DNA of 18,789 bases from Breznakia sp. PF5-3. Lineage in GTDB: Bacteria > Bacillota_I > Bacilli_A > Erysipelotrichales > Erysipelotrichaceae. The stretch covers positions 1 to 18,789 of the forward strand of contig NZ_JAQFIQ010000045.1 of NCBI RefSeq assembly GCF_029504745.1, given 5' to 3'. Every line of letters starts with the position of its first letter. Within the stretch, counting starts at the first letter, position 1. A model generated the notes under the pieces. It was given only the letters and a program-made list of their open reading frames with translations, was not told the origin of the DNA and did no database searches. Below are positions 1-17,275 of the stretch, in pieces. The translations under genes and the position numbers were made by a program.

Positions 1-27
1 CATTGTATATTTTTGATTTCTTCCCAT
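1..27 (-). CDS. Possible 5' end of another minus-strand gene (first 9 codons MGRNQKYTM; continues out of the window)
   Basis: ATG (complement of 25-27) is preceded by AAGGGGG (complement of 35-41) with a 7-nt spacer. Only 27 nt are visible, so the product cannot be assigned. Confidence 0.25.
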
Positions 28-30
28 ATT

Positions 31-84
31 AAAACCCCCTTAAATTAAAGTGCTTTATTTATTTGCACTGTATACCTAAGGGGG
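31..84 (-). terminator. Rho-independent terminator downstream of the giant surface-protein gene
   Basis: On the minus strand, CCCCCUUAG (complement of 76-84) pairs with UUAAGGGGG (complement of 35-43). There is an inner AGTGC/GCACT stem, and the hairpin is followed by UUUU (complement of 31-34). It lies about 55 nt after the stop at 139. Confidence 0.7.
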
Positions 85-138
85 ATAACATCATTGAATC
101 GGTTTTTTGTTAATAAATCTTTTTATGATTGCAGATCT

Positions 139-3100
139 TTATGCTTTTCTTTTTCTTCCTACTACAAAGATTCCTAACATGGATACACCAAGCATGATTA
201 TCAACTTTTCAATATTACTTTCATCACCTGTACTTGGTGAATATGTTGCTGTCATTTTACTAGGTTTTCTTTTATCCTTTGATGGACTGCTTTGCTTGTT
301 TTTTTCAAATTTCCAAACACCTTTAAATTTCTCATCTGCTTTATTTATTGTTTTTGTGTTTTCATCATAGCCTTTAAATGTCCACACTCCATCATTGACA
401 CTATCTACATACGTTGTTGTACTTGGTAGAGTTGCTGATACCGATTCTTTATTTACTAAATTCATTATATCTTCTGGTAAATAACTATCAATTGCGGTTG
501 GCAAAGATAAACCGTCGGTTCCACTTTCAAATGTATGAACTGCTTTATATTTATTTGCTTCAAATTCCCAAACACCCTTAAACTTCACATTTGCTTTATT
601 TATTGTTTTTGTGTTTTCATCATAGCCTTTAAATGTCCACACTCCATCATTGACACTATCTACATACGTTGTTGTACTTGGTAGGGTTGCTGATACCGAT
701 TCCTTATTTATTAAATCCGTTATATCTTCTGGTAAATAGCTATCAATTGCTGTCGGTAAAGCTACTCCACTTGTCCCACTTTCAAATATATGAACTGCTT
801 TATATCGGTTGATTTTAAATTCCCATGTTCCTTCAAAATTTACATCCGCTTTATTTATTGTCGTTGTTGTGACATCATAACCCTTAAATGTCCATACTCC
901 ATCATTGACACTGTCTGCATATGTCGTTGTAGTTGGTAGGGTTGGTGTTACAGCTTCTTTATTTACTAAATTCGTTATATCTTTTGGTAAATAACTATCA
1001 ATCGCGGTTGGTAAAGCTACCCCTTCAGTTCCACTTTTAAAACTATGAGTTGCTTTATATTTGTTTGCTTCAAATTCCCATATACCTTCAAAATTTATAT
1101 CCGCCTTATTAATCGTTTTAATAAGCGCATCGTACCTTTTAAACGTCCACACTCCATCATTGATACTATCTACATACGTTGTTGTCGTTGGCAAGGTTGG
1201 TGTTACAGAAGTTTTATTCACTAAATTCGTTACAACACTTGGTAAATAATCATTAATTGCAGTTGGTAAAGCTACTCCTTCGGTTCCACTTTTAAAGCTA
1301 TATGTTGCTTTATATTTATTTGCTTCAAATTCCCATGTTCCTTCAAAATTTACATCTGCATTATTTATTGTCTTTGTTGCAGCATCATAATTTTTAAACG
1401 TCCATACTCCATCATTAATACTATCTGCATAGGTTGTTGTCGTTGGTAAAGTTGGTGATACAGACGCTGTATTTACTAGATTTGTTATATCTTCTGGCAA
1501 ATAGTCATCAATTGCGGTTGGTAAATCCAACCCTTCGGTTCCACTTTTAAAACTATGGGTTGCTTTATACGTCTTCTTTATACCTAACAATATATCTTTT
1601 GAAGTATAATAATCTTTACTAAAATCAGCTACAACTTCTATTTCTGCCAATTTCGTATCCGGATTATACCATGAAGAATTTGCTCCATCATCACCATCTG
1701 CAAACGCCTCTACTAACGTTATTGGTGATGATACAACCTTTACTGTATACTTTCCATCCGATGGAACAGCAAAGCGATATTCCCCATCACTATTTGTTGT
1801 TGTGATACTGCTATCTGGTTGATTATCTATTTCAACACCATCTTTGTACACTTTTAATTCAATTCCTGCTTTTGGTAATTCTAAAATTCGATCATAAAGT
1901 GCATTTTCAATTTCATCATACCAAGCATGTCCATATAATTCCATATCCGTTAATGTATATGTCATTAAAGATGTATGATACCCAACATTACTTAACCAAT
2001 CATTATTAGCTTGTCTTTGAATATTGCTGTAATAGATTGTACTTGAAGTTTGTTCTCCAACAACACTTTTATCTTCACTTAATGCACATTTTATCTCAAA
2101 ATCATAAGCTTCAAAAGGCTTAATATTTTTTACGATTACTTTTATCATTGTTGCTGCTTCCAATTCTTCTAATGTTGTTGCAGCATTCCATTCTTTATAT
2201 TCACCTGTAGGATCTTCTAATCCACTATTTAAGTTATTCATACTTGGTGTTGTAGATGTTGAATAATAAAGCGTATATTCAACATCACCAGTTGCTGAAT
2301 CCATACTACTAAAATCATAGCCTATCGCATTCATTGAAAAATCATCCGCTGCTGACTCTTTTTCATCAAGTCCTTCAAAGTAAGTATAAGTATTTCCTTT
2401 TTTAGGAATTGGAATATATACAGAGTAATTGTAAATTTCATTACTTCCTGAAGTAATATCACCAAAAATGTTTGCTTTCATACTAAATAAATTATCAACG
2501 GTTGTGATTGCTTTGCTACTTACAGCTGTTCCTTGATCATATGGAGCCTTCGCAAGAACCGACCCATTGATTCCAGTTCTTAATCTCATTTGAATACTAT
2601 GTGTTGTCGTAACATCTGCATGAAGCATTCTATTTTTTCCAGTCGTTTCATTAAAGAATTCTTCACCAAAAGGAGCCCCTGTTTTAGTTGTATCTTTCGA
2701 CTCTATAGAATCTCCCGTCTCTACATCATAGTCTTTTTCAAAATCATAATAAGAACCATCTCGATTTGAATCATATGCGCTATCCATCCAACTTTCTAAT
2801 ACAGGTTTTGCTGTATGTATAGCCTCTGCATTAGGGCTTACATATAAATCAAAAGTCTTCGTAAAGTTTGTATTTCGTTCAATCCCTTCTAAACAACCAC
2901 TATAATCAACAATTAAGTATCCGTACTCTATACTTCCAGAACTCAACTCTCCTGTTCCAGGAGGTAAATATACAACCGTTGCCCCTTCTGGAAGTCCGCC
3001 AATACTATCTTTTACATATGTGAAATCTTTATGAATTTTATAATAAATTGTTGGTCTAATTTTTAATTCAGAATCAATATCTTTTGTTTCATCTGTAAAG

Positions 3101-6100
3101 TTGTATTTCTGTGTACTTGTCACCGTCAATGTATTTCCTTGATATGTACTTGTTGTACTCGCACTTCCTTTATAACTAATTGCTTCATTAAAAGAGTTTA
3201 CATACATAACAGGACGTGCTATTTTACTACTTCTTCCATTCGCATTCAATTCATACTTACTTCCATAAATATCATCAAAAGATAATGCTACTGCTACTTT
3301 TAATTGATCATAATTAACCCCTGTACCATCTTTATTATCTCCACTTAAATCACTTGTGGATCCATCAAACTGCCCTATTTCAACTTTTGATATCGGGTAT
3401 GTTTTTGGCAAGGCTGCATTAGCACGAGCCAATGCTACTTTTGGTAGTTTACTTGCAAATTGTGATTCTCTTTGCCACGTTGTAGCATTATTCACATCAT
3501 ATTTGCTTCCATTAGATCCCCAGTTTACATCATTTGGTACACTTACTTTAAGTGCTGTTATATAATCTCCATCCAAAACATTAAATTCTGGTACAAGTGA
3601 ACTCAATGTAAAAGGTTTTGTATGACTATCACTATAACGTGTATCCCATGCTGTAGGTTCGTACCAACCACTAGATTCTGATAACCAATAACCTGATGTA
3701 CAACTTCTTAACGCTCCAATATCCTCAAATGATTTCGTTACATATTCACCAGAACTTGATTCATAGTAAGTAAACTCAATATTTAAATATGATCTTTCAT
3801 CAATATAAATTGCATTTGTAAGTGCTAGTATTTCTTCATTTGTATCAGAAAAATCATAGATTACATTTTGATAATGCATCTGTTCCCCACTTGGGCTCTT
3901 TGGTTCTACAACACCTAAAATATGATCTTTTGCTGTTCTCGTTCCTACATTACTAAGTCCTGTAGCTACGGCATTCGGTGCTACATACCAATCTAATTCT
4001 GAAACACTTAATGTTTTTGGATAACTTCCAAGTATTATTTTTCGCGAAGTACCTACAACACTCGCTGGATGATATTCATGTGCTAAATCATCTCGATTAC
4101 AATCCATACTCACCGAATAAGATAAGCTTATTCCTGAACCTAGATCTTTTCCATTTATCTCTCCATCACTATTCTTGTCACCTATTACTGCATCATATCC
4201 CATATGTCCTGGTTTGATGGTCTTTGCATATAACCCTTGAACACATACAACCGAACTATTATCTGTAATTTCCCATGTATTTACATCATATAATGCTACC
4301 GTAATACTCGTCGCGTATGTTCCTCCGTTGGCAGCGATAATTTCATCCAATTTATATAGTTCACTCTCTTCAAGAACATTTCCATTTTGTCCACTTAGAT
4401 TTGAAACTACAATTCCTGGTTGGGTATCTCCTTCACTTGGATAACGAAAATAAGAAGCCGCTACTTTTTCACGATATGCTTCAGCATCATTTAAAACCTT
4501 ATGCTCTACTCCGTTCTCATCAACATAGCTAACTAATTGTTGTCTTGATGTTCCTACGCGATCAATCATTGCTACTGCATCACCTGAAATAGTAACCGTT
4601 ACAGGATTAAATTCTGGTGAAGTTGAAGGATATGTATTTCCTTCTGCGTCAATGTTATAGTCCATTGTCGATGCACGTTTTCGAATCCCATAAGAAATAA
4701 AACGAACACTATCTTTGTGATTATTTACCTCAACAGTTCCTGACCCATTGAGAAAGGCACTAGCATAAGAAGCATCTCCAACACCAAACAATTGTAAATC
4801 ATCTTTCTTTTCCGTTAACTTTATTACAATATCTTTTGTTATTGCTCCACCTTTCGATTGCAAATCCTTTGAATCCAATTCTCTTACTATTTTTGCTTCA
4901 TATCCATCTGGAATATCAGCACCAGTACTTGGGAACTTATCATATGTTTTCATCGTTGCATCAAACCAAACAATTCTTCCACCCGTAGTAATAGCAGTTG
5001 TCCAACTAAATTTATTATTTACAGGAATAATTTCTATTTTTGAAATATAGCCCCTTCCCAATTCACTTGAAGCATCATAAGTATCTCCATCACCAATATT
5101 CATAACTTTAAATGGTGTAGATTCATTGTCTTTATAAAATTGATAGATAAATCCTTGATCTTTTGTTGTTTTCAAACCTGTTAATGCGATTGGTGATAAT
5201 TCTTCTTTAAATGTATACGTCACCTTAAAATCTTCTTCAATTCTCCAACTTGTTTCTTTTCCTACATCAAATACCATTCCAAAACTAAGATCTTTTGTAT
5301 TATATCCTACTTCTTTACTCTTATACTGCTCTAGTTTTGTTTGCAACGTATTTCCTATATACGCTTCTCTAGAATGAAGATTTTCTCCCTCTTGCCAATA
5401 CAAATCACCATTTTTAAGCATAAAAGATACTTTATCACCAGTTAATGATTTTATACTTTGACTAGTATCAAAAAGCATATAGTCCATTGAAACTACATCA
5501 CTTGCTTCATATAATGTATTCTCTTCAATACTATGATATTTACTTTTAACACCTACTTTGATTGTTATGGTTCCTTCTCGCTCTAAAAAATCCATCCATG
5601 ATGCATTATCTGCTGCAGTCACATAATCCATTGCAGAATGAATATTAGCATATGGATTAAGCGTAATTGTATTGCCTGAAATTGTCCGACCAAGGTTTAC
5701 TTCATTTCCTAGTTTATCTTTAAACACAGCCGTTATATTTATAGGTTCAATAAAACAATTGGGTAATGGTATTTCTATTTTCATATCCGTTGTGAAATAA
5801 CCTGCTGTTTTTTCAATATCAATCATGAACATATTATTTGCTGCTGCAATTGTTTCTTCATTTGCTGATAAAGCCTTCCCATCAACTCTTCCTCCAAAGA
5901 CTGCCCCCAGCTCTTTTGGTGTAAGTTGTTTTGTTTCAATACTGTTTATAGAATAATTCGCTTCTTTCTTATTAACCGTAAAATCCATATAATTCGTATA
6001 TCCATCTTCACCTTCATCATATAATGTTCCGCGATTTGTATCATCGATATAATTACAATAATTTTGTAATCCAAAACGATATACTTTATCTTCACTCATA

Positions 6101-6714
6101 TCCTTTAAAATTCCTAAAGCATCTTGTTGAACTTCAAATGAAACAGCAAACATATTGATATCTTCATTTGGTAAATCCATATCAATTTGTTGTACACCTT
6201 CTGCTGTTGTTGTAATTTTTATATTCTTCATTTTTAATTCTTCTAACATCTTTGTAATTGTTGCATCATCTGCTGTCAGTGAAAAATGCTTTGGCACAGT
6301 AAAAACTAAGTGACGATTTACGCCACCTTCTGCTAATGACATTGGTGTTACTTGATACAAAACGGTAAATGTACGTGTCTGTAATGTTCCAACCGAAAAT
6401 GATGATGGATCTTTTAAAACTACATTGCTACTTGATAAATATACTCTATTCATCGCTGAGCGCATTTGGGTAGGAAGTTTTATTTCTTCCACATCAACTT
6501 TTTCATGACCCTCTTTTACCACTTCTTTTGTTTCTTCTTCAATATTTGTTTCTGTAACTTCTTCATTTCCTGTCTCTGTTACAACTTCATTTTGGGGTAT
6601 ACTGTCCTGTGCATTAATATACACAGATAACCCTTGTGTTACGATTAGCAAAATACTCATCATTATTATAATGAGCTGCATTCGTTTAACAAAATAATTT
6701 TTCTTTCTTTTCAT
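139..6714 (-). CDS. Giant cell-wall-anchored surface protein (2191 aa): signal peptide, orphan ~1550-aa region, CnaB-like module, 5 SHIRT-like repeats, SPSTG sorting signal
   Basis: A single open frame runs 139-6753. I place the start at ATG 6712-6714 because GGAGG (complement of 6720-6724) lies 5 nt upstream. The N-terminus MKRKKNYFVKRMQLIIIMMSILLIVTQGLSVYINA/QD reads as a Sec signal peptide (6610-6714). The C-terminus has SPSTG, then a hydrophobic helix, then GRKRKA. Confidence 0.93.
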   Translation of the reverse strand: MKRKKNYFVKRMQLIIIMMSILLIVTQGLSVYINAQDSIPQNEVVTETGNEEVTETNIEEETKEVVKEGHEKVDVEEIKLPTQMRSAMNRVYLSSSNVVLKDPSSFSVGTLQTRTFTVLYQVTPMSLAEGGVNRHLVFTVPKHFSLTADDATITKMLEELKMKNIKITTTAEGVQQIDMDLPNEDINMFAVSFEVQQDALGILKDMSEDKVYRFGLQNYCNYIDDTNRGTLYDEGEDGYTNYMDFTVNKKEANYSINSIETKQLTPKELGAVFGGRVDGKALSANEETIAAANNMFMIDIEKTAGYFTTDMKIEIPLPNCFIEPINITAVFKDKLGNEVNLGRTISGNTITLNPYANIHSAMDYVTAADNASWMDFLEREGTITIKVGVKSKYHSIEENTLYEASDVVSMDYMLFDTSQSIKSLTGDKVSFMLKNGDLYWQEGENLHSREAYIGNTLQTKLEQYKSKEVGYNTKDLSFGMVFDVGKETSWRIEEDFKVTYTFKEELSPIALTGLKTTKDQGFIYQFYKDNESTPFKVMNIGDGDTYDASSELGRGYISKIEIIPVNNKFSWTTAITTGGRIVWFDATMKTYDKFPSTGADIPDGYEAKIVRELDSKDLQSKGGAITKDIVIKLTEKKDDLQLFGVGDASYASAFLNGSGTVEVNNHKDSVRFISYGIRKRASTMDYNIDAEGNTYPSTSPEFNPVTVTISGDAVAMIDRVGTSRQQLVSYVDENGVEHKVLNDAEAYREKVAASYFRYPSEGDTQPGIVVSNLSGQNGNVLEESELYKLDEIIAANGGTYATSITVALYDVNTWEITDNSSVVCVQGLYAKTIKPGHMGYDAVIGDKNSDGEINGKDLGSGISLSYSVSMDCNRDDLAHEYHPASVVGTSRKIILGSYPKTLSVSELDWYVAPNAVATGLSNVGTRTAKDHILGVVEPKSPSGEQMHYQNVIYDFSDTNEEILALTNAIYIDERSYLNIEFTYYESSSGEYVTKSFEDIGALRSCTSGYWLSESSGWYEPTAWDTRYSDSHTKPFTLSSLVPEFNVLDGDYITALKVSVPNDVNWGSNGSKYDVNNATTWQRESQFASKLPKVALARANAALPKTYPISKVEIGQFDGSTSDLSGDNKDGTGVNYDQLKVAVALSFDDIYGSKYELNANGRSSKIARPVMYVNSFNEAISYKGSASTTSTYQGNTLTVTSTQKYNFTDETKDIDSELKIRPTIYYKIHKDFTYVKDSIGGLPEGATVVYLPPGTGELSSGSIEYGYLIVDYSGCLEGIERNTNFTKTFDLYVSPNAEAIHTAKPVLESWMDSAYDSNRDGSYYDFEKDYDVETGDSIESKDTTKTGAPFGEEFFNETTGKNRMLHADVTTTHSIQMRLRTGINGSVLAKAPYDQGTAVSSKAITTVDNLFSMKANIFGDITSGSNEIYNYSVYIPIPKKGNTYTYFEGLDEKESAADDFSMNAIGYDFSSMDSATGDVEYTLYYSTSTTPSMNNLNSGLEDPTGEYKEWNAATTLEELEAATMIKVIVKNIKPFEAYDFEIKCALSEDKSVVGEQTSSTIYYSNIQRQANNDWLSNVGYHTSLMTYTLTDMELYGHAWYDEIENALYDRILELPKAGIELKVYKDGVEIDNQPDSSITTTNSDGEYRFAVPSDGKYTVKVVSSPITLVEAFADGDDGANSSWYNPDTKLAEIEVVADFSKDYYTSKDILLGIKKTYKATHSFKSGTEGLDLPTAIDDYLPEDITNLVNTASVSPTLPTTTTYADSINDGVWTFKNYDAATKTINNADVNFEGTWEFEANKYKATYSFKSGTEGVALPTAINDYLPSVVTNLVNKTSVTPTLPTTTTYVDSINDGVWTFKRYDALIKTINKADINFEGIWEFEANKYKATHSFKSGTEGVALPTAIDSYLPKDITNLVNKEAVTPTLPTTTTYADSVNDGVWTFKGYDVTTTTINKADVNFEGTWEFKINRYKAVHIFESGTSGVALPTAIDSYLPEDITDLINKESVSATLPSTTTYVDSVNDGVWTFKGYDENTKTINKANVKFKGVWEFEANKYKAVHTFESGTDGLSLPTAIDSYLPEDIMNLVNKESVSATLPSTTTYVDSVNDGVWTFKGYDENTKTINKADEKFKGVWKFEKNKQSSPSKDKRKPSKMTATYSPSTGDESNIEKLIIMLGVSMLGIFVVGRKRKA
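142..240 (-). other. C-terminal sortase sorting signal with the non-canonical pentapeptide SPSTG
   Basis: SPSTG is encoded at 226-240, followed by DESNIEK, the hydrophobic stretch LIIMLGVSMLGIFVVG (157-204) and the basic tail RKRKA. This is the classic tripartite sorting-signal layout, with (S/P)PxTG in place of LPxTG. Confidence 0.8.
295..1569 (-). repeat. Five in-frame tandem repeats of exactly 255 bp (85 aa), SHIRT-like stalk domains
   Basis: Repeat units are 1315-1569, 1060-1314, 805-1059, 550-804 and 295-549. Each starts YKA(T/V)(H/Y)xF(K/E)SGT and contains LPTAI(D/N)xYLP, TLP(T/S)TTTY, NDGVWTFK.YD and F(E/K)G.W(E/K)F. The two distal units share a 93-nt identical block (337-429 = 592-684). 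Confidence 0.95.
1570..1938 (-). other. CnaB / SdrD-B-like beta-sandwich module just upstream of the repeats
   Basis: The motif GIELKVYKDGVEIDNQPDSSITTTNSDGEYRFAVPSDGKYTVKVV resembles the T(D/N)xxGxYxF..(L/V)xxGxYxV signature of Cna-B-type stalk domains. Assigned by eye only. Confidence 0.5.
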
Positions 6715-6981
6715 TTCGCCCTCCTCATAAATCCCATACATATGAGATTCCAAACTTAATTTATTACTAATTATCCTTCCCTAAATCCTGTCTGCTTTTG
6801 CATATAAATGTTTTCCTCCATATCTCTTTTTTTACCCCCTTTGCATGGTTTTTCATTTATGTACAATTAATTCATCCTTTCTTTAATCCTTACCTTTCAT
6901 TAATTAGACAGTTCTTTTCCGAATATCGTTCGACTTTTTTGAATATTTTTCATTTTTCTTACATTTTGATGCAAATATAAC

Positions 6982-7014
6982 AAAAAAGGCCTTAACACTA
7001 CGGTTAATGGCCTT
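6982..7014 (-). terminator. Rho-independent terminator after the DUF2974 gene
   Basis: On the minus strand, AAGGCCAUUAAC, a CGUAGU loop and GUUAAGGCCUU form a stem with one bulge, followed by UUUUUUG (complement of 6982-6987). It starts 18 nt after the stop at 7032. Confidence 0.8.
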
Positions 7015-7031
7015 AAGCTGAATATATTCAC

Positions 7032-8117
7032 TTATGCTTCTTTCTTCTCTTTCCAAACCAAAAACTTCAACATTGATTTAATGGTTTTAAAAATATAAGA
7101 CCGTGTTTCTTTATCCAACGTTTTAATTGATTTAAAAATAATAGAAGCATTTTGTTTCCAAGAAGAAGTAAACTCTTCCAAAGTTTTCGCATCACACCCT
7201 CGATAAATATCATATACACCTTCCACAAATTTCTCTTTATCTTTTGTATCAAGTGTATCTAACCAGCGATTCAATTTATAATTCATACGCATTAAGCTTT
7301 TATTCGGTTTTTCCAAATATATGAAATCTCCATTCTTAACTTCCCAAGAAAACGGATCGTGTTGTGTAATCCATATATTTTTACTGCGAATAATTGTATA
7401 ATCACTTTCTTCTTCAAACAAAATTCCTACCATTGATGATTGTGGCATAATTTTAATCACTCGCTCTTTAATATTTTGATAAGCACTACTTTGCCTAATC
7501 TCACTACGAAATCCTGGACCATCAAAACTATAAATAAGTTTTATTTTATCTTGTAAAGTTGTATTGATATGCATTGTTGAATACATTGCAATATTTCCAC
7601 CTTTTGAATGTCCACCAACAATTATATTACCATCTAATAAAGGTAGTATGTGTTCTAAATATCGAACCCCTGCTGTTTGTGATGGAATTGGCGATTGAAA
7701 TAACATATTAAAATCTTCTTTCCACCCTACAATCGTAGAATCTGTTCCTCTAAAAACAATATAGGTACACTCTTGCAGATAAAAAGTTACTGCAGAAAAT
7801 TGTTTTTCGCTAATTTCATCAATGTGATTGATATAGTAATTTAAATGTAAATGAGAATAACGCTTACTACTAGCAATAGCTAACAGTAAGCGTCTATTTT
7901 TCCCACCATTTAGAATACTCTTTGCTAGCACATTTAAATCTAATGCTTTTACTATTTGTTGAATTGATACCTTTCGCTTTTGCTCACTAATGTGAGGAAC
8001 ACTTTCAAAATCAATGTAAGATAATTGTGCTAATACCAATGCATCGACATTATTAAAAGGCTTTTCTAAAAAAGTTTTATTTTTATACTTTTTAACATAA
8101 TAAATAATATCTTGCAT
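7032..8117 (-). CDS. DUF2974 / Mbeg1-like alpha/beta-hydrolase (lipase-like)
   Basis: 361 aa. The N-terminus MQDIIYYVKKYKNKTFLEKPFNNVDALVLAQLSYIDF is typical of this family. The nucleophile elbow GGHSKGGNIA fits GxSxG. GGAGG lies 4 nt before the ATG at 8117. Confidence 0.75.
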   Translation of the reverse strand: MQDIIYYVKKYKNKTFLEKPFNNVDALVLAQLSYIDFESVPHISEQKRKVSIQQIVKALDLNVLAKSILNGGKNRRLLLAIASSKRYSHLHLNYYINHIDEISEKQFSAVTFYLQECTYIVFRGTDSTIVGWKEDFNMLFQSPIPSQTAGVRYLEHILPLLDGNIIVGGHSKGGNIAMYSTMHINTTLQDKIKLIYSFDGPGFRSEIRQSSAYQNIKERVIKIMPQSSMVGILFEEESDYTIIRSKNIWITQHDPFSWEVKNGDFIYLEKPNKSLMRMNYKLNRWLDTLDTKDKEKFVEGVYDIYRGCDAKTLEEFTSSWKQNASIIFKSIKTLDKETRSYIFKTIKSMLKFLVWKEKKEA

Positions 8118-8132
8118 ATTACCTCCAATACT

Positions 8133-9092
8133 CTATAGTAGTGGATCTACAGTTTCCTTAATAACCTTTTCTAAATTATCATAAGATGCTTCAAATTTAC
8201 ATCTATCTACTTCATTTAATGGTAACACTAGTATATCGCGTATCCCATCACGATTTACAACCGCAGGAACCCCAATATACAAGCCTTGCTTTCCATATTC
8301 ACCATTTTGATGAGCTGATACAGATAGAATAAGATCTTCGTTATTCAATACCGCTGCAACCAATCGATTCAAAGACAACCCTATACCATAATATGTTGCC
8401 TTTTTCTTCTCGATGATTTCATATGCTGCATTACGCACTTCTTCATAAATTTCAAGTAAATCATCAAGCCCTTTATCTTGTTCATCTAAAAGTGCTAATA
8501 AACTCTTTGATCCTATATATGCATTTGTCCAAGAAACAAAGCTTGAATCACCATGTTCTCCCATGATATAAGCATGCACATTATTTGGGTTCACATCTAA
8601 GTAATTTCCAATCATATAGCGTAGCCTTGCTGTATCAAGTAAAGTTCCTGAACCAAACACTTGACTAGTTGGTAAACCTGTTACTTGCTGTACTACATAC
8701 GTCATAATATCCACTGGATTACTAGCCACTATAATTACACCATTAAATCCACTTGCCTTGATATTCTCACAAATCTCTTTAATAATCTTTGTATTTATTG
8801 CTGTTAGTTCTAATCTTGTTTGTCCAGGCTTTTGTGCTGCTCCTGCCGTAATCACAATGATACTTGCATCCGCACATTCCTCATAGCCTCCTGATTTAAT
8901 AATCATTTTACTGTTTGCAGCGTATGGTAAACCATGTGATAAATCCATCGCTTCACCTTCTGCTTTCTCTTTATTGACATCAATCAAGACTAACTCATCA
9001 ATCCCTCTTTGTGTCAATAAACTATATGCCATACTCATCCCTACAAAACCAGTACCTACTAATACGATTTTTCTATTTCCTATTGTGTTCAT
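8133..9092 (-). CDS. ldh: L-lactate dehydrogenase
   Basis: 319 aa. Rossmann motif KIVLVGTGFVGMS; substrate loop ITAGAAQKPGQTRLEL with Gln (LDH) rather than Arg (MDH); catalytic GEHGDS. GGAGG lies 7 nt before the ATG at 9092. Confidence 0.93.
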   Translation of the reverse strand: MNTIGNRKIVLVGTGFVGMSMAYSLLTQRGIDELVLIDVNKEKAEGEAMDLSHGLPYAANSKMIIKSGGYEECADASIIVITAGAAQKPGQTRLELTAINTKIIKEICENIKASGFNGVIIVASNPVDIMTYVVQQVTGLPTSQVFGSGTLLDTARLRYMIGNYLDVNPNNVHAYIMGEHGDSSFVSWTNAYIGSKSLLALLDEQDKGLDDLLEIYEEVRNAAYEIIEKKKATYYGIGLSLNRLVAAVLNNEDLILSVSAHQNGEYGKQGLYIGVPAVVNRDGIRDILVLPLNEVDRCKFEASYDNLEKVIKETVDPLL

Positions 9093-9116
9093 AATTAATC
9101 CTCCGTTACAACCATA

Positions 9117-9143
9117 TTGTACAACTTTTTTTTGTGTTATACT
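9117..9143 (+). promoter_or_regulatory. Candidate sigma-A promoter for the HAD-GNAT pair
   Basis: TTGTAC (9117-9122), a 15-nt spacer, then TGT-TATACT (extended -10; hexamer 9138-9143), about 25 nt upstream of the ATG at 9169. The spacer is short, so this is weak. Confidence 0.3.
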
Positions 9144-9168
9144 AACTATATGATTAAGGAGATTAGAT

Positions 9169-9984
9169 ATGTATAAGTTATTAGCAATGGATTTAGATGA
9201 AACCCTATTTAATGATCAACATCAAATAGATGAAGGTAATAAAAAGGCAATTGCCAAAGCAAGAGAAAAGGGTGTAAAGATTGTTCCTTGCAGTGGTAGA
9301 GGACCAGGATTTTTAGGAACCCTCTACGATGATTTAGATATTAATCAAGAACAGGAATACAGTATTCTGTGTAATGGTGCAATTGTAATAGAAAATAAAA
9401 CTAATAAAATTATTAGTTGTTCACCATTAACCTATGAAAAAGCAAAAGAACTATATAAGTTTGGAAGAAGCAAAAACTTATGTGTTCAAATTTTCACACC
9501 TGAAAATGTTCATGTTTTTCATCCTGATGAAAAAGAAAAAGAACGGATAATGAATTTTGGTAATAATATTGTTTTTCATGATGATGACAATATTGAAATA
9601 TTTAAAGATGAAACAATCATAAAACTATTATTTGAAAAAGAAGATTCTATGGACTTTCTTCGCTCCCTAGAACCTGAGCTAATACCAATTACTGATAATT
9701 TCATTACCGTCTCCTTTTCAAGTAATCGATATTTGGAGTTAAATGCACTTGGTATCCATAAGGGGATTGGTCTCTTAAATCTTGCTAACTATTTAAATAT
9801 TGATATCTCTGAAACTATTGGGGTTGGTGATAATTATAATGATGTAGGATTAATTGAAGATGCTGGATTAGGAGTTGCTGTACAAAATGCAATTGAGCCT
9901 ATCAAAAACATTGCAGATGTGATTACCAAAACCACAAATAACGAAAGTGCAATTGCGGAAGTGATTGATACTTATATCTTATAA
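9169..9984 (+). CDS. Cof-type HAD-IIB family sugar-phosphate phosphatase
   Basis: 271 aa. Motif I is LAMDLDETL (DxD); motif IV is GVGDNYNDVGLIEDAGLGVAVQNA. GGAG lies 7 nt before the ATG. Confidence 0.88.
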   Translation: MYKLLAMDLDETLFNDQHQIDEGNKKAIAKAREKGVKIVPCSGRGPGFLGTLYDDLDINQEQEYSILCNGAIVIENKTNKIISCSPLTYEKAKELYKFGRSKNLCVQIFTPENVHVFHPDEKEKERIMNFGNNIVFHDDDNIEIFKDETIIKLLFEKEDSMDFLRSLEPELIPITDNFITVSFSSNRYLELNALGIHKGIGLLNLANYLNIDISETIGVGDNYNDVGLIEDAGLGVAVQNAIEPIKNIADVITKTTNNESAIAEVIDTYIL

Positions 9985-9999
9985 AGAAGGAGAATATGA

Positions 10000-10596
10000 A
10001 TGTTAAATAAAGATCTTCCATACTGTGATATCATTATGAAAGCAGATGCTAAAGTTGCTACTAACCATAAGATTCTAACTTTACCAGAAGGATATTCATA
10101 TAAAATGTATGAAGATGGAGATGAAGAGCACTGGATCGAAATAGAATATAGTGTACATGAATTTGAGTCTAAAGAAAAAGCAAGGGATTACTTTAATCGT
10201 GTTTTTATGCCATATAAAGATACGCTTCCAAAACGAATGTGTTTTATTCTAGATGAAAATAAAAATTATGTAGCTACATCAAGCGCTTGGTTTAAAAATA
10301 GCAAAGAACGTTATTATGCTGTCTTACACTGGGTATCCACTTCGCCATCTGCTCAAGGGAAAGGACTTGGAAGAGCTATTGTTACATATGCTCTATCAAA
10401 GTTTAAGGAAACCGATCCTGAAGAAAAAGAAATATTTTTACACACCCAAACATGGAGTTACAAAGCGGTTGGTCTATATGGTAAACTAGGATTTAAAATC
10501 ACAGAACTACCTTTGCTTGATTCTGCTACCGACCCTAAAGCTTATGAGGTATTAAAAAAGGTTATGCATCCAAAACATTATGAATTAATTATTTAA
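10000..10596 (+). CDS. GNAT family N-acetyltransferase
   Basis: 198 aa. The acetyl-CoA motif A is QGKGLGRAIVTYAL, with a C-terminal YGKLGFKI. GGAG lies 7 nt before the ATG. The gene starts 15 nt after the HAD stop, so it is probably co-transcribed. Confidence 0.8.
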   Translation: MLNKDLPYCDIIMKADAKVATNHKILTLPEGYSYKMYEDGDEEHWIEIEYSVHEFESKEKARDYFNRVFMPYKDTLPKRMCFILDENKNYVATSSAWFKNSKERYYAVLHWVSTSPSAQGKGLGRAIVTYALSKFKETDPEEKEIFLHTQTWSYKAVGLYGKLGFKITELPLLDSATDPKAYEVLKKVMHPKHYELII

Positions 10597-10620
10597 AAGC
10601 ACTATGTGCTTTTCTTTTTA
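10595..10620 (+). terminator. Rho-independent terminator after the GNAT gene
   Basis: AAAAGCAC, loop TAT, GTGCTTTT, followed by CTTTTT. The stem is short, with only 4 G/C pairs. Confidence 0.55.
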
Positions 10621-10631
10621 TTGATAGCTTA

Positions 10632-10640
10632 TGCTATAAT
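10632..10640 (+). promoter_or_regulatory. Extended -10 promoter element upstream of murI
   Basis: TGCTATAAT is a perfect TGnTATAAT, 21 nt upstream of the ATG at 10662. No good -35 lies at 17 nt (TTCTTT). Confidence 0.5.
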
Positions 10641-10661
10641 TATTTTATTTGAGGTGATAAT

Positions 10662-11429
10662 ATGATTACAGAAACATCCCCAATTGGAATCTTTGATTCT
10701 GGACTTGGTGGTATCAGTGTTCTCAATGAATGCTTAAAACATTTACCTAATGAACATTATATATATTATGGAGATTCTAAAAATGCTCCTTATGGAATAA
10801 AAGACAAAGAAGCAATCATCCAACGATGTATTGAAATTTGTGATTTTTTTATTACGAAAAATGTAAAAGCAATTGTTGTTGCTTGTAATACTGCTACCAG
10901 TGCTGCGGTACAAACTTTACGTGAACGTTATCCTATTCCAATTATTGGTATGGAACCTGCACTAAAAGTTGCTGCCCACAATAAGCAAAACCAAACAATT
11001 ATCGTAATGGCTACACATCTAACCCTAAAAGAAGAAAAGTTTGCAAACTTAATGAAATGCTATGAAAGTGATCATCATATTATAAAATTACCTTGTCCCG
11101 AATTTGTAACAGCAATTGAAAGCGATTTTAAAGATCATCAAGCTGTTGTAAACCATCAATTGGATCAATATGCATCACATATCAAAACAAAGCAAATTGA
11201 TAGCATTGTTTTAGGTTGTACACATTTTGTTTTTCTAAAACAAGAGATTCAAAATTATTTCCAAAAGCCAATCCAAGTGATCGACGGAAATGAAGGAACC
11301 GCTAAACACTTAGCTCACATTCTCGAAGAAAAACAACTGCTATCAAAACAACCATTAAAAATCGATATTTACAATTCTGATAATTCTAAAATCGAATTGA
11401 GCAAACGTTTAATAACTCCAAACCTTTAA
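10662..11429 (+). CDS. murI: Glutamate racemase
   Basis: 255 aa. IGIFDSGLGGISVL, the catalytic Cys motifs VVACNTATS and VLGCTHFV. GAGGTG lies 5 nt before the ATG. Confidence 0.93.
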   Translation: MITETSPIGIFDSGLGGISVLNECLKHLPNEHYIYYGDSKNAPYGIKDKEAIIQRCIEICDFFITKNVKAIVVACNTATSAAVQTLRERYPIPIIGMEPALKVAAHNKQNQTIIVMATHLTLKEEKFANLMKCYESDHHIIKLPCPEFVTAIESDFKDHQAVVNHQLDQYASHIKTKQIDSIVLGCTHFVFLKQEIQNYFQKPIQVIDGNEGTAKHLAHILEEKQLLSKQPLKIDIYNSDNSKIELSKRLITPNL

Positions 11430-11455
11430 GGTATTGGAGTTATTTTTTTTATTTT
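11412..11455 (+). terminator. Rho-independent terminator of murI, embedded in the 3' end of the convergent CDS
   Basis: ATAACTCCAA (11412-11421) pairs with TTGGAGTTAT (11434-11443), followed by TTTTTTTATTTT. The stem spans the murI stop at 11427-11429. Confidence 0.7.
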
Positions 11456-11800
11456 ATCTGCAAACGAAATAATATCTCGTTCTTTTGTATACTCTAATAT
11501 TCCTTTATCGCCTACTTCAAGTACATTGTAAAAGAAACTATTCACAACAAATACTTTTTCTTCATCATCCATCAGAAAAACTACTTCATAACTATGGTAT
11601 GTACTATTCATTTTATTTGCAGGATTTGCCACCAAATATACTTCCTTACGCAACACTGTCGCCATAACTTGAAACTCTCCAGTTGTCTTTTTCTTTTTTG
11701 GTCGATATGTAAGAAATATCAAAATAATCATCCCACCTATAAAAACAAAGGCCATAATTTCAGTAATAGATGTAAGTATATCATACGTCTCTTTATCCAT
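11426..11800 (-). CDS. DUF2500 / YhhM-like small membrane protein
   Basis: The N-terminal TM helix is IMAFVFIGGMIILIFLTY. The C-terminal VGDKGILEYTKERDIISF parallels E. coli YhhM GDKGTLSYKGTRFVSF. I prefer the ATG at 11798-11800 (GAGG 8 nt upstream) over the TTG at 11827 used by the ORF track. Confidence 0.7.
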   Translation of the reverse strand: MDKETYDILTSITEIMAFVFIGGMIILIFLTYRPKKKKTTGEFQVMATVLRKEVYLVANPANKMNSTYHSYEVVFLMDDEEKVFVVNSFFYNVLEVGDKGILEYTKERDIISFADKIKKITPIP

Positions 11801-11849
11801 AGTTTTTTCCTCTCTTATACTTTTCAATTCCGATGATTACAATAAATCT

Positions 11850-11878
11850 ATTATTTCTTAATTTTGGATACTCGTCAA
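11850..11878 (-). promoter_or_regulatory. Candidate sigma-A promoter for the DUF2500 gene
   Basis: On the minus strand, TTGACG (complement of 11873-11878), a 17-nt spacer, then AATAAT (complement of 11850-11855). Confidence 0.4.
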
Positions 11879-11890
11879 GTTTATAATAAT

Positions 11891-11918
11891 TAAAAAGACA
11901 AGCACTAAGTACTTGTCT
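11891..11918 (-). terminator. Rho-independent terminator after the ABC operon
   Basis: On the minus strand, AGACAAGUAC, loop UUA, GUGCUUGUCU (10-bp stem with one mismatch), followed by UUUUUAAUUAUU. It starts 22 nt after the stop at 11940. Confidence 0.75.
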
Positions 11919-11939
11919 ATACTGTTTTAAACTGAAATT

Positions 11940-13073
11940 CTATATTACATTTTTACGAGTTTTTTTACTAATCAATATCGCTAGCACAAAAAACAAGATT
12001 CCAAAGCCTATTAGAATTGCCATATTTTGAAAAATAGGATCTACAAATTTAGCATCTAAAGATGTTAAGTTATAAATGCGATCATTACTATTCACAAACC
12101 AATAAGATGGAATAAACTTAGATACCATCAACACAGAATCACTCAACATCGATTGTGGTACAAAACAACCTCCAAGAAATGCTAATCCTAAACATAGAAT
12201 ATTTGAAATTCCATTGATTGCTTCAGCTTTTTTAATTGCACTTCCAATCAAATAAGATAACCCAAGGCAAGGGAATAAGAGAGCTACTAAATTTAGTATA
12301 TACAAATATGAACCCGTTGCTTTCATTCCATCACCAAAGAAAACATATGCAAAGATTACAGACACTACAAACAATACAACACCTAGTACTCCTGCCCCCA
12401 TACTCAATTGTACATTCATTTTCAAATTTGATATAGGAGACACTACATTTCTTCGCTTTATATCCACTTTATTAAGCGATACCATAACAGCACCAATACC
12501 CCAGATAAGTGAACAGAAGAATGAGTAACATAGGAAATTGAAATAGAAATGTATTGGTTCTGTTTTTTCACCTACTATGTTTTCAGAACTTACTTCCAAT
12601 GCAAGATCTTTATTCGCTTTCTTAACCGCTTCTTTTATTGAAACATCACCATGCGCATAATATCCACGAATGGTATTTGTAAAGGATTCTGCATAAGAAT
12701 CTACGATGTATGCACTTGCCGAATCCGGCACCTGCTTCTTTTCCAAAGCAATTTCTTTGTTTTGCTTGATTTGCCCTTCATATCCTTTAGGAATATACAT
12801 GACATACTCTATATCTTGATAAAACAGAGCATCCTCAATCATATCTTCATCAATATCTTTGACATTTGTATTCCCTGCCATATACTTAATCAACGCTTTC
12901 GAACTCTCACTTTGATCTTTATCAACAATAGCAATATCTGCCTTTTGAATTACAAATTGATCTCCATTGCTTTTCACAAAGATAATTGAAAAAGAAAAAG
13001 CTATAAATAACGTCATGAATACACTTACTTTATTTTTATTAATAATTTGGAAAAATAGTTTAAATACTTGCAT
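11940..13073 (-). CDS. ABC-2 type transporter permease (large extracytoplasmic loop after TM1)
   Basis: 377 aa. TM1 is VFMTLFIAFSFSIIFV, followed by a soluble loop of about 150 aa and then five C-terminal TM segments. GGAG lies 8 nt before the ATG. The gene overlaps the upstream gene by 14 nt. Confidence 0.85.
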   Translation of the reverse strand: MQVFKLFFQIINKNKVSVFMTLFIAFSFSIIFVKSNGDQFVIQKADIAIVDKDQSESSKALIKYMAGNTNVKDIDEDMIEDALFYQDIEYVMYIPKGYEGQIKQNKEIALEKKQVPDSASAYIVDSYAESFTNTIRGYYAHGDVSIKEAVKKANKDLALEVSSENIVGEKTEPIHFYFNFLCYSFFCSLIWGIGAVMVSLNKVDIKRRNVVSPISNLKMNVQLSMGAGVLGVVLFVVSVIFAYVFFGDGMKATGSYLYILNLVALLFPCLGLSYLIGSAIKKAEAINGISNILCLGLAFLGGCFVPQSMLSDSVLMVSKFIPSYWFVNSNDRIYNLTSLDAKFVDPIFQNMAILIGFGILFFVLAILISKKTRKNVI

Positions 13074-14187
13074 AAGCTTTTCTCCTTAATACATTATATG
13101 AAATAATTAGGGCAATAATTCCCATTCCCACTAGAATTGCCATGTTGATATATACCGGAGAAATATCTTCGTAATAATACAACATATTAAAACTGTTGGT
13201 AATCAACGTTGCAGGATTGATATATTTAATAAACGGAACACTTTGATTTAAAATATATGGCATATTACTAGCCATCATACCTGCCAAGAAACAACTAAAT
13301 AAACTTCCCATGCTTATGATGGTGATATTTGTATTTTCTTTTAACTTTGAAATACATCCTATCATAATTCCCATTCCTAAACTCATCAATACTCCACATA
13401 AACTTACCCCAATTACTTGTGGAAAGTAAGATCCAAAATCAACGCCTAAAACTAAAATCAAATAAGCAAAAGTAATTGCTAATTCCACTACCATTAAAGT
13501 AAAGGTTACTAAATAATCAATAAACACTAACTTCATTTTATGCGTTGGTGCAATGTTTAAACGAATTGCCCGATCACTTTGATTCGCTTGTGTATCACTG
13601 ATACTTTTTAACCCCCAGAAACCTCCATACATACAAGTCATAGCAATAATGGTATAAAAGTATTGCATCGTTGGATCAGAAGACCCTGCATTTGATCCAT
13701 AATCCTTTACAAGCACCTTATTTTCAATAAGATCCGTGATTACCATATCATTCATTTTTTGAGGATTCTCATTTGCAATTGTATTCACTGTAGCATTGAT
13801 TCGCAAATACGATTGTACTACTTCTTTTAAAATTTGTGTTTCCAAAGTATCATTACGATACAGTACGGTTGGTTTATCGCTACTCACTAAAGCCGCTTCA
13901 ACTTCACCATCTTTAACTAGTTTCTTAGCCTTTTTTTCACTTGTATAAGTTGCATCTAAGATTTGATTATCCCCTTCTTTACTCAATTCCTCAACGACTG
14001 CATTAAAATCTTTATTCCCATTATCTACAACCGCTACCTTAATAACATCTAAGTTGCTTTCACTACCTAAATTTGAAAAAGCAAAAAAGAATAATGTTGC
14101 TAAACCAATAGGAAACAACAATGACCAAAATAAAATGGTTTTATCTTTTATAAAACAAATAAATCGATATTTAAATATATGAAACAT
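13060..14187 (-). CDS. ABC-2 type transporter permease, paralog of the downstream permease
   Basis: Same topology as 11940-13073. The start is ambiguous. The GTG at 14194-14196 directly abuts the ATPase stop. The ATG at 14185-14187 has AGGTG 6 nt upstream and is preferred. Confidence 0.85.
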   Translation of the reverse strand: MFHIFKYRFICFIKDKTILFWSLLFPIGLATLFFFAFSNLGSESNLDVIKVAVVDNGNKDFNAVVEELSKEGDNQILDATYTSEKKAKKLVKDGEVEAALVSSDKPTVLYRNDTLETQILKEVVQSYLRINATVNTIANENPQKMNDMVITDLIENKVLVKDYGSNAGSSDPTMQYFYTIIAMTCMYGGFWGLKSISDTQANQSDRAIRLNIAPTHKMKLVFIDYLVTFTLMVVELAITFAYLILVLGVDFGSYFPQVIGVSLCGVLMSLGMGIMIGCISKLKENTNITIISMGSLFSCFLAGMMASNMPYILNQSVPFIKYINPATLITNSFNMLYYYEDISPVYINMAILVGMGIIALIISYNVLRRKAYASI

Positions 14188-14196
14188 AAGCGACAC

Positions 14197-15129
14197 CTAA
14201 TCCCTTAATTCTTTTCCTGTGATTTCCAAGAAAACATCATTTAATGTTGGCGTTTCACTATATACTTTATTAAAGTCTATCTTATTTTCTTTAAAATAAG
14301 ATAACAACTCCAATAGTAATCCATTATTCTTCGTAACTTCAATTTCTAATAATTGATTTTTAAAACTTGCATCATTTACATCTTTATGGCCTTTTATATA
14401 AACTAAAACATCATCTTCTAAAGCATCCATTTCAAACTTAATTTTTTCTTTCACTTGAATTGAATTCTTTAATACCTCTTTTGTTCCACTAGCGATTTCT
14501 TTTCCACTATCCATAATAATAATGCGATCACAAAGTTGTTCGACTTCTTCCATGTAATGTGTCGTATACACAATCGTTGCTCCCTTTTTATTCAACTCTT
14601 GAATATTCTCCAAGATATGATTTCTTGATTGTGGATCTACTGCCACAGTAGGCTCATCTAAGATAATCAATTTTGGTTTATGAGCAATTCCACAAGCAAT
14701 ATTTAATCTTCTCAGTAAACCTCCACTTAATTCTTTAGGATATTTTTTCTTATAATCATTTAACCCTACAAATGTTAATGCTTCCTCAACATATTGTTGA
14801 CACTGTTTACGATCACTTATGTATAATCCACAAAAATAATCTACATTTTGAAATACTGTAAGTTCTTCAAAAACAGCTACATTCTGCATTACAACACCAA
14901 TATCCTTTTTTATATCATATGAACTTGCTGTCATATCTTTTCCAAAAATTTTAATAGTTCCTTCTTCATGTGTTAACAATGCTAACAAACAATTTATTGT
15001 CGTTGTTTTACCACTTCCATTAGGCCCTAACAAACCTAAAATTTCCCCATCCTTTACTTCTAAATTAAAGTGATCTAATGCTTTAAAATCACCATAATAT
15101 TTTACTAAGTCCTTAATTTCTACTATCAT
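14197..15129 (-). CDS. ABC transporter ATP-binding protein
   Basis: 310 aa. Walker A GPNGSGKTT, signature LSGGLLRRL, Walker B LIILDEPT, H-loop TTHYMEE, plus a C-terminal accessory domain of about 90 aa. Confidence 0.93.
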   Translation of the reverse strand: MIVEIKDLVKYYGDFKALDHFNLEVKDGEILGLLGPNGSGKTTTINCLLALLTHEEGTIKIFGKDMTASSYDIKKDIGVVMQNVAVFEELTVFQNVDYFCGLYISDRKQCQQYVEEALTFVGLNDYKKKYPKELSGGLLRRLNIACGIAHKPKLIILDEPTVAVDPQSRNHILENIQELNKKGATIVYTTHYMEEVEQLCDRIIIMDSGKEIASGTKEVLKNSIQVKEKIKFEMDALEDDVLVYIKGHKDVNDASFKNQLLEIEVTKNNGLLLELLSYFKENKIDFNKVYSETPTLNDVFLEITGKELRD

Positions 15130-15131
15130 AA

Positions 15132-16061: not shown

Positions 16062-16389
16062 CCGCTAATCTCCTTATAAATCTGTTAATTACATCTTTTG
16101 TGACTTCCCACTCTTCACATTTTTCTTTATAATATGTTATTCCCTGATTAGTTATTTTATAATATGTTCTTCTTTTTCCAAATGTCTCATTTCCATGATA
16201 AGAAACAATATACCCTTTTTTCTCCAACCTATTAAATGCCGAATAAAGGGTTGTCTCCTTGATAATATATTTCTTTTCTGAAATATCTTCTATTTCTTTT
16301 GAAATTTCATATCCATAACTATCTTTATCTAAAATAATCGATAAAATAATGAGATCATTGTATCCACGAATTACATCACTACTGATCAT
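16048..16389 (-). CDS. PadR family transcriptional regulator (short, PadR-2 type)
   Basis: 113 aa. The winged-helix motifs are YGYEISKEI and LYSAFNRLEKKGYIVSY. The ATG at 16387-16389 has GAGG 7 nt upstream; the ORF track used the GTG one codon earlier (16392). Confidence 0.88.
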   Translation of the reverse strand: MISSDVIRGYNDLIILSIILDKDSYGYEISKEIEDISEKKYIIKETTLYSAFNRLEKKGYIVSYHGNETFGKRRTYYKITNQGITYYKEKCEEWEVTKDVINRFIRRLADGNN

Positions 16390-16420
16390 CACATTACCTC
16401 TCTTTTCTCACCACTTGTTT

Positions 16421-16475
16421 TTACTACGACTGGTGTAGTAATAATATATCACAATTACTACGACAGGTAAAGTAA
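16421..16475 (-). promoter_or_regulatory. Two copies of a 21-bp operator-like motif bracketing a candidate promoter of the PadR-ABC operon
   Basis: Copy A (16421-16441) is TTACTAC-GACTGGT-GTAGTAA, a perfect 7-7-7 inverted repeat. Copy B (16455-16475) is TTACTAC-GACAGGT-AAAGTAA. Between them on the minus strand are TGATATATT (extended -10) and TTTACC, with a 17-nt spacer separating the TTTACC and TATATT hexamers. Confidence 0.55.
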
Positions 16476-16479
16476 AATT

Positions 16480-17037: not shown

Positions 17038-17062
17038 AATTACCTCCATTAATACCATTTGG

Positions 17063-17106
17063 TATTATTCTACTTTTAGAATAATATAATTTTATACTAT
17101 TGTCAA
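17063..17106 (-). promoter_or_regulatory. Perfect 10-4-10 palindrome overlapping a candidate promoter of the long PadR gene
   Basis: TATTATTCTA-CTTT-TAGAATAATA spans 17063-17086. On the minus strand, TTGACA (complement of 17101-17106), a 17-nt spacer, then TATTCT (complement of 17078-17083). The -10 therefore lies inside one palindrome arm. Confidence 0.55.
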
Positions 17107-17234: not shown

Positions 17235-17275
17235 CAAAAAATGATAATAAAAATCAATATTTTTTTACAGCCTAT

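Follow-up and report, generated by a model that had tools for sequence, protein, structure and literature searches.

A large beta-rich head family on stalked surface proteins of Breznakia and Lachnospiraceae: a candidate multi-domain adhesive module

Gene structure and architecture of the encoded protein

The window analyzed here is a stretch of 18,789 nucleotides from Breznakia sp. PF5-3 (NCBI RefSeq assembly GCF_029504745.1, contig NZ_JAQFIQ010000045.1, positions 1 to 18,789), and the subject of this report is the gene at 139-6714 on its minus strand, together with the very large N-terminal head of the protein that it encodes. Breznakia is a genus of the Erysipelotrichaceae whose habitat is the insect gut. 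The largest open reading frame (ORF) of the window runs over 139-6753 on the minus strand; the ATG at 6714 is the biologically sensible start, with a GAGGAGG ribosome-binding site 6 nt 5′ of it, and gives a protein of 2,191 amino acids (aa) with the N-terminus MKRKKN. This protein is identical to WP_277491198.1, which is annotated as 'SHIRT domain-containing protein [unclassified Breznakia]'. The parts flanking its head, which occupies aa 36-1580 including the linker, are as follows.

6610..6714, minus strand: signal peptide (aa 1-35, MKRKKNYFVKRMQLIIIMMSILLIVTQGLSVYINA, cleaved before QDS), read from the translation
6454..6609, minus strand: acidic linker rich in E, T and V (aa 36-87), read from the translation
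1579..1977, minus strand: SdrD-B/CnaB-like domain (aa ~1580-1712) at the head-stalk junction, from a sub-threshold Pfam SdrD_B match and Foldseek
295..1575, minus strand: five tandem SHIRT domains (aa 1714-2140), the variable-length stalk, from Pfam SHIRT (E=1.7e-88, 5 stretches)
142..237, minus strand: C-terminal sorting signal (aa 2160-2191) made of SPSTG, a hydrophobic segment and RKRKA, from TIGR01167 and the sequence

Read by eye from the translation, the first residues have the features of a Sec signal peptide, namely a KRKK n-region, a hydrophobic core and a cleavage site between INA and QD(S). At the opposite end SPSTG, a variant of LPXTG, is followed by IEKLIIMLGVSMLGIFVVG and then by RKRKA, and the LPXTG_anchor model TIGR01167 scored 15.9 bits, exactly its cut-off. 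With both signals present, WP_277491198.1 is predicted to be a secreted, sortase-anchored (LPXTG-type) surface protein; no cognate sortase gene was found within the window. At the junction between head and stalk, Pfam SdrD_B matched aa 1634-1691 with 22-24 bits, below its cut-off of 29.7. An equally weak match was found at the same relative position in four of the relatives described below (P0004, P0005, P0006 and P0012), and the Foldseek matches for this domain included SdrD N2N3-B1 (4jdz) and UafA.

The stalk was resolved by Tandem Repeats Finder as a 255-bp unit repeated 5.0 times with 82% DNA matches (window 304-1569, minus strand; aa 1714-2140). In comparison, the allele of Breznakia sp. 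OttesenSCG-928-G09 encodes 2,106 aa, exactly one SHIRT unit (85 aa) less, and is identical at 2053 of 2055 residues over the aligned part. The array is repeated in tandem and its repeat number differs between strains, and on both counts it behaves as a periscope-type variable-length stalk; variation of stalk repeat number among strains has been described for periscope proteins (Whelan et al. 2021, PMC8201768).

The head family and its predicted fold

The unannotated head, about 1,545 aa long, ends where the SdrD-B/CnaB-like domain begins. The original prediction, made from the letters of the window, had placed about 1550 unassigned residues before a CnaB-like module, at 1939-6609 (which translates to aa 36-1592), behind a signal peptide and a short acidic E/T/V linker, and had taken them for the N-terminal, distal part of a wall protein built as stalk plus tip. 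The signal peptide and linker were borne out by the translation, the unassigned region is real with its end drawn back to about aa 1580, and the SHIRT stalk and sorting signal lie C-terminal to it as that architecture implies. Comparable low-complexity TETP/ETE segments are found at the N-terminus of the homologues. Other sequence-level statements also stood: there are exactly the seven scattered Cys residues that had been counted, all of them in the head (aa 220, 320, 824, 872, 1005, 1274 and 1543); the composition is rich in S/T/E/D/G/N/Y; the search of the head for the thioester motif CGQ or CGEQ, said to be missing, came back empty; and self-BLASTP detected no internal repeats in the head, neither tandem nor dispersed. 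Weaker repetition at the level of profiles was likewise absent. In hhalign comparisons among alignments of the eight head domains listed below and the B domain, all probabilities were below 3%, and against the SHIRT repeats no similarity was seen (all below 3%). The head is thus not a cryptic repeat array.

No known family was recognized in the head. Pfam gave no match before aa 1600, its only matches in the whole protein being the five SHIRT domains and the sub-threshold SdrD_B, and NCBIfam gave none in the head. A phmmer search of all PDB chains with the single sequence returned 0 matches at E<=10, as did a search of PDB sequences with the family profile, and when seven family members were scanned singly at E<=1, no consistent Pfam or NCBIfam family appeared besides SdrD_B. 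Therefore, the lack of a recognizable family, which had been noticed from the sequence, holds for current libraries and was not an oversight of the reader; no profile search assigned the region to characterized adhesin or enzyme domains. A 'TYTF' at aa 499-502 that resembles the MSCRAMM motif TYTFTDYVD was dismissed, as it is not conserved in relatives.

Relatives of the head were collected by an exhaustive HMMER (phmmer) search of 1.84 billion cluster representatives with aa 80-1279 as the query. It found 16 proteins including the query, that is 15 relatives, with 28-38% identity over the matched stretches; most of the 16 are 1,100-4,700 aa long, and three short metagenomic fragments (P0013, P0015 and P0016) match in head domain D6. 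In BLASTP, relatives aligned in one colinear high-scoring segment pair that covers nearly the whole head (aa ~81-1720); for P0004-P0008 the E-values were 1e-126 to 1e-141, at 26-27% identity across ~1,800 columns, and for P0011, P0012 and P0014 they were 1e-55 to 1e-72. In a complementary genome survey, the degenerate motif RPT.Y[YF]K[IV]..F was scanned over 185,579 species-representative genomes and followed by tblastn. This confirmed homologues in Hespellia, in a Lachnospiraceae metagenome-assembled genome (MAG) with two paralogues, and in four Stomatobaculum MAG species; motif matches in Flavobacterium and others were discarded by tblastn. The question of strain-specificity, raised in the original prediction, can be answered in the negative: judging from these alignments, the head is a rare but genuine family common to the Lachnospiraceae (Clostridia) and Breznakia (Erysipelotrichia). 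It is undescribed in the libraries searched, and the surface proteins that carry it come from a small number of Firmicutes of the gut and mouth.

All full-length relatives consist of an unannotated head of ~1,600 aa, in whose first ~1,600 residues Pfam sees nothing either, an SdrD-B-like domain (weak SdrD_B matches at about aa 1610-1820) and a lineage-specific stalk. The modules C-terminal to the head include FctA (Spy0128-like isopeptide) domains, Flg_new (Listeria-Bacteroides/InlB-B) repeats and SpaA, and the C-terminal signals are of the LPKTG, MPKTGE or GPKTG type, except that in P0011 choline-binding repeats replace the LPXTG signal. Existing annotations follow the stalk alone. For example, WP_073112867.1 of Hespellia stercorisuis is annotated as 'Spy0128 family protein' and MFV0466204.1 of a Lachnospiraceae MAG as 'InlB B-repeat-containing'. 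The head has been kept as a unit while stalks and anchors were exchanged between lineages, and this marks it as an independently selected functional cassette.

For the fold of the head, AlphaFold2 was run on two overlapping halves, each with an alignment of 11 family sequences. Model 1 (aa 81-1000) reached a mean predicted local distance difference test score (pLDDT) of 63 and a predicted template modelling score (pTM) of 0.45, and model 2 (aa 860-1720) a mean pLDDT of 65 and a pTM of 0.59. Both models are almost entirely beta, with helices only short and isolated, in agreement with the beta-rich character read from the composition. From DSSP and pLDDT patterns the head is predicted to comprise about eight mutually dissimilar beta-sandwich (Ig-like or jelly-roll-like) domains, probably arranged as a leg-like chain. 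Their limits are estimates and approximate.

5911..6453, minus strand: D1 (aa ~88-268), predicted beta-sandwich, the most divergent of the family (20% identity), from DSSP and pLDDT of model 1
5404..5859, minus strand: D2 (aa ~286-437), predicted sandwich with long strands of 12-14 residues (21% identity), from model 1
4861..5361, minus strand: D3 (aa ~452-618), from model 1
4201..4860, minus strand: D4 (aa ~619-838), from model 1 and alignments
3715..4143, minus strand: D5 (aa ~858-1000), starting with the Cys872/Asp876/His882 cluster, from model 1 and alignments
3217..3597, minus strand: D6 (aa ~1040-1166), the best conserved (35% identity), from model 2 and conservation
2776..3216, minus strand: D7 (aa ~1167-1313), pLDDT 75-89, from model 2 and the alignment
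2638..2775, minus strand: low-confidence acidic loop (aa 1314-1359) between D7 and D8, from low pLDDT and the alignment
1990..2637, minus strand: D8 (aa ~1360-1575), pLDDT 80-91, from model 2 and the alignment

Identity to relatives is 20-21% in D1-D2 and 27-35% in D4-D8, a rise that would be expected of a distal tip that diversifies, in ligand or in antigenicity, while its scaffold is conserved. The more conserved domains carry recurrent motifs: the strongly conserved block TMDYN.D..GN...DPVVVE.SGDA.T.TDRV (aa 683-720) in D4, G.YIT.LKV..P.D.NWG and YD.L.VKA.LSF.D.FG in D6, RPT.YYKI.K.FTY and PAG.G.G.SGS..YG.L.I.Y in D7, and W.VY.PI.KKG and ITMIKV.VD in D8. Four Lys residues (K302, K679, K1438 and K1549), of the kind that the Lys-Asn/Asp-Glu/Asp triads of isopeptide-forming domains would require, are invariant in the head alignment.

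Both models were compared with the PDB by Foldseek, and gave many significant matches, all with low TM-scores. Among them were the legs of integrin alpha chains, the Chlamydomonas mastigoneme, and A-regions of MSCRAMMs with or without a B domain, namely FnBPA (4b60; target-normalized TM-score, TMt, 0.42), SdrD (4jdz; TMt 0.41), UafA (3irp), SdrG, ClfA/B, Bbp and RspB. Pilins were also matched (BcpA, SpaD, CppA and S. sanguinis PilB), as were CFA/I CfaE and CfaB. These structures are chains of Ig-like sandwiches, and we read them as pointing to an adhesin- or pilin-like string of beta-sandwiches, and to nothing more specific. A fold search of BFVD returned just generic beta-rich viral proteins, including ConA-like and LamG-like ones. 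The structure prediction and fold search proposed along with the original prediction thus yielded estimates for some eight domains, and matched only Ig-like chains, with no glycoside-hydrolase or other enzyme fold among the strong Foldseek matches of either model. What had been described as a single head would accordingly be a series of dissimilar sandwiches, much of which may be a non-repetitive leg.

Candidate functions of the head

Two conserved features of the head alignment may bear on function in addition to the fold. The first is a cluster at the D4/D5 junction, where both AlphaFold2 models are unreliable. It consists of Cys872 (codon 4099-4101, minus strand), present in 13 of 13 family members and the sole conserved Cys of the head, of Asp876 (4087-4089), which is invariant, and of His882 (4069-4071), present in 12 of 13. 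The context of Cys872 is L[YF]C[EKQ][YA]SD[YW] in relatives versus SMDCNRDD in Breznakia, and the His-Gly that contains His882 comes after a loop of variable length, with 10 to ~28 residues between Cys and His. The second feature lies in the acidic loop between D7 and D8.

2737-2772, minus strand: EF-hand-like loop DSNRDGSYYDFE (aa 1315-1326), from a regular expression and the alignment

This loop carries the family-wide W...D...D..RDG signature (DxNxDG-type), in which W1309, D1315 and D1319 are invariant in a 7-sequence alignment and near-invariant in one of 11. A second EF-hand-like loop, at aa 846-857 (window 4144-4179), is an insertion specific to Breznakia. The two share the pattern DxNxDGx(hydrophobic)xxx[DE], and both are candidate Ca2+ sites.

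On balance we favor, with reasonable though not high confidence, the reading that the head is a non-enzymatic, multi-domain adhesive module of a new family, carried on a length-variable SHIRT stalk. We infer adhesion from the secretion and anchoring signals, the clear SHIRT stalk, the adhesins and pilins among the Foldseek analogues, and the divergence of D1-D2. The five SHIRT domains would hold the head away from the wall, and their strain-variable number would tune its reach. The head would then bind a surface ligand non-covalently, candidates being a glycoprotein of the host or gut lining, a polysaccharide, or another cell. Contact with the ligand would be made by the variable distal D1-D2, the conserved core D4-D8 would act as a rigid, possibly Ca2+-stabilized scaffold, and D3-D8 as a whole may form a rigid leg, again possibly stabilized by Ca2+. 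Of the two functions that the original prediction had left side by side, adhesin and enzyme, the structural analogues agree with the former, while no catalytic domain or fold was found for the latter in Pfam, NCBIfam, PDB profile searches or the strong Foldseek matches.

Several points weigh against adhesion as the function. The confidence of the AlphaFold2 models is moderate, with ~28% of residues at pLDDT below 50, including the D4/D5 junction and its invariant Cys. TM-scores of the Foldseek matches are low (0.1-0.4), and any chain of beta-sandwiches would give matches of this kind. A single invariant Cys with His and Asp in an extracellular protein suggests a chemical role for which a purely passive adhesin would have no use. 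The analyses turned up no ligand, no binding pocket and no known adhesive domain. Finally, the genomic context is of a housekeeping kind and is not conserved among relatives, and therefore gives no functional support.

As to that context, the adhesin gene is a solitary one, with a terminator on one side and ~280 bp of its own upstream region on the other. Its neighbors encode an Mbeg1-like hydrolase, a lactate dehydrogenase, HAD and GNAT proteins, a racemase, an ABC-2 exporter and an extracytoplasmic function (ECF) sigma factor; no sortase, pilin or pilus operon, or carbohydrate-active enzyme (CAZyme) gene was found near it in the window, and no conserved neighbor gene in the loci of four relatives. 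The adjoining upstream gene (7032-8117, minus strand) encodes a 361-aa Mbeg1-like protein of a lipase-like alpha/beta hydrolase family, and between the two genes lie a terminator-like hairpin and the ~280 bp. Farther away, 11940-18556 (minus strand) holds a gene for a 426-aa ECF-sigma-like protein whose sigma domains are confined to its first ~185 aa, followed downstream by small ORFs and by genes for a DUF2207_C-like membrane protein, an ABC ATPase and two ABC-2 permeases, a set that may serve in export or stress under control of the sigma factor. At two of the four loci of relatives, in Hespellia (L001, 4462-6808) and on a Logan contig (L030, 5602-7839), a regulator with Response_reg and LytTR domains, an unannotated ORF of 326-431 aa and another of 52-58 aa lie directly upstream of the adhesin homologue. 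These three genes may form a quorum-sensing cassette that acts through a peptide and controls the adhesin there; the cassette is absent from the Breznakia window. An origin of the adhesin gene from a mobile element was rejected, as tblastn against plasmids and phages found no relative and the gene is uniform in GC content throughout.

The alternatives to this adhesive reading overlap with it and with each other, and the confidence given to each is not additive. The one that survives best is in fact a sub-case of adhesion, in which the head would be an array of jelly rolls like those of carbohydrate-binding modules (CBMs) or lectins that tethers the cell to a dietary or host polysaccharide such as plant fiber, chitin or mucin glycans. 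It would suit the source organisms, which are gut and oral fermenters, and it is consistent with the strands of 12-14 residues in several domains, which are typical of jelly rolls, with the ConA-like and LamG-like proteins matched in BFVD, and with the conserved Ca2+-loop-like motif. However, the structural matches are generic, no CBM, lectin or glycoside hydrolase family was detected even at E<=1, and no CAZyme gene is adjacent to the head gene in any locus examined, so that we regard carbohydrate binding of this kind as possible and rather unlikely.

Somewhat more doubtful is the proposal that the head is mostly a non-repetitive stalk or leg, in which the tip D1, perhaps with D2, alone would bind and D3-D8 would be spacers comparable to the thigh and calf domains of integrins or to pilin backbone domains. 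The domains are all-beta and in series, D1-D2 are the most variable, and the top Foldseek matches align three to four consecutive domains to integrin alpha legs and pilin shafts. In proteins of this kind, however, spacing is usually left to inexpensive tandem repeats, a role that SHIRT already fills here, and the colinearity of eight unrelated domains at ~25% identity across two classes, with stalks swapped, suggests that the whole unit is selected.

The conserved cluster invites a different explanation, an unrecognized catalytic or self-processing activity at Cys872-Asp876-His882, either as a site of the cysteine peptidase or transglutaminase type or as an autocatalytic cross-link. Conservation at this level (Cys872 in all 13 members and His882 in all but one, with Asp876 invariant, in a family at ~25% identity) speaks for it, and Cys872, as the only conserved Cys, is therefore not in a conserved disulfide. 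Set against this are the varying length of the Cys-His loop, the residue after Cys, which is not conserved in Breznakia (DCNR versus the YCEY type), and a local AlphaFold2 confidence too low to show geometry; no peptidase or other enzyme family or fold was detected. We consider such an activity improbable. A related and still bolder proposal, to which we give slightly less credence, is that the three residues form a novel type of functional chemical center for a Gram-positive adhesin. It might act in covalent capture or self-processing, or as a switch that responds to redox state or senses metal. A capture or self-processing site of this sort could be unrelated to thioester, isopeptide or ester domains, and if the proposal were true, this rare head family would be a new class of 'reactive' adhesin module.

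The least credible explanation is a diverged thioester domain (TED), in which a Cys-Gln thioester would attach the head covalently to its target, on the model of SfbI or Cpa. The published definition of a TED (PMC4450167) asks for an invariant Cys within the motif [YFL]C-hydrophobic-hydrophilic, for a Gln that is likewise invariant, and for a helical subdomain at the center. Although the L[YF]C of the family resembles the start of this motif (PMC4450167), and TEDs are N-terminal to isopeptide-domain stalks in LPXTG proteins, as the head is to the FctA stalks of relatives, we rejected the assignment because a conserved Gln, a helical core and a TED match are all lacking in the family: alignments of 11 and 13 sequences have no invariant or near-invariant Gln downstream of Cys872, the residue order after the Cys (first hydrophilic, next hydrophobic) is opposite to that of the TED motif, AlphaFold2 gave no central three-helix subdomain (its confidence being low there), Pfam TED matched none of the family members scanned, and no TED structure was in the top 50 Foldseek matches.

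Whatever its ligand, the head has value for annotation. A sortase-anchored protein with a stalk and a head is a familiar design; a head of ~1,600 residues with no Pfam, NCBIfam or PDB entry is new at the level of sequence, and offers about eight candidate new domain families to annotation databases. It also gives a handle on niche attachment by insect-gut Breznakia and by oral and gut Lachnospiraceae, and a clean natural example of a conserved head on a swapped stalk. Its practical significance will be modest until a ligand is found.

Comparison with known surface protein systems

Four known systems invite comparison with the Breznakia protein. The thioester (TIE) adhesins, such as SfbI and Cpa (PMC4450167), likewise place a functional N-terminal region before the stalk of an LPXTG protein, and share a conserved Cys that follows an aromatic residue in a beta-strand context, but the Breznakia head family is without a conserved Gln, a helical subdomain or a Pfam TED match. 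Gram-positive pilins of the Spy0128 (FctA) kind are connected to the family by the Foldseek matches to BcpA, SpaD, CppA and PilB, by true FctA domains in the stalks of relatives, and by the annotation of relatives as 'Spy0128 family'. In contrast, when head domains D1-D8 were compared by hhalign with an FctA alignment made from the stalks of relatives, the probability stayed below 1%, and the head has no pilin motif and its gene no nearby sortase or pilus operon.

The Clf-Sdr MSCRAMMs (SdrD, SdrG, ClfA/B, FnBPA and UafA) provided the best target-normalized Foldseek matches, to structures of their N2N3 domains, with TMt of no more than 0.30-0.42 at a root-mean-square deviation of 12-14 Å. They are also wall-anchored, and have IgG-like sandwiches directly before an SdrD-B-like domain, as predicted for the Breznakia protein. 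The Breznakia head is nevertheless about 4-5 times longer, no conserved sequence motif of the latch or TYTFTDYVD type was recognized in it, and neither SdrG_C_C nor Cna nor any other MSCRAMM family matched the protein or six relatives at E<=1.

The periscope adhesins, represented by Sgo_0707 of S. gordonii (Whelan et al. 2021, PMC8201768), offer a parallel for the protein as a whole. Unlike typical periscope heads, the Breznakia head is far larger (~1,545 aa in eight unrelated domains) and lacks a sequence match to solved structures, and its SHIRT repeats are only 82% identical at the DNA level. Both start with a signal peptide and an N-terminal functional region, continue with tandem, highly similar SHIRT domains and end in a sortase signal, and in both the number of repeats varies between strains, with five units in one Breznakia allele and four in the other.

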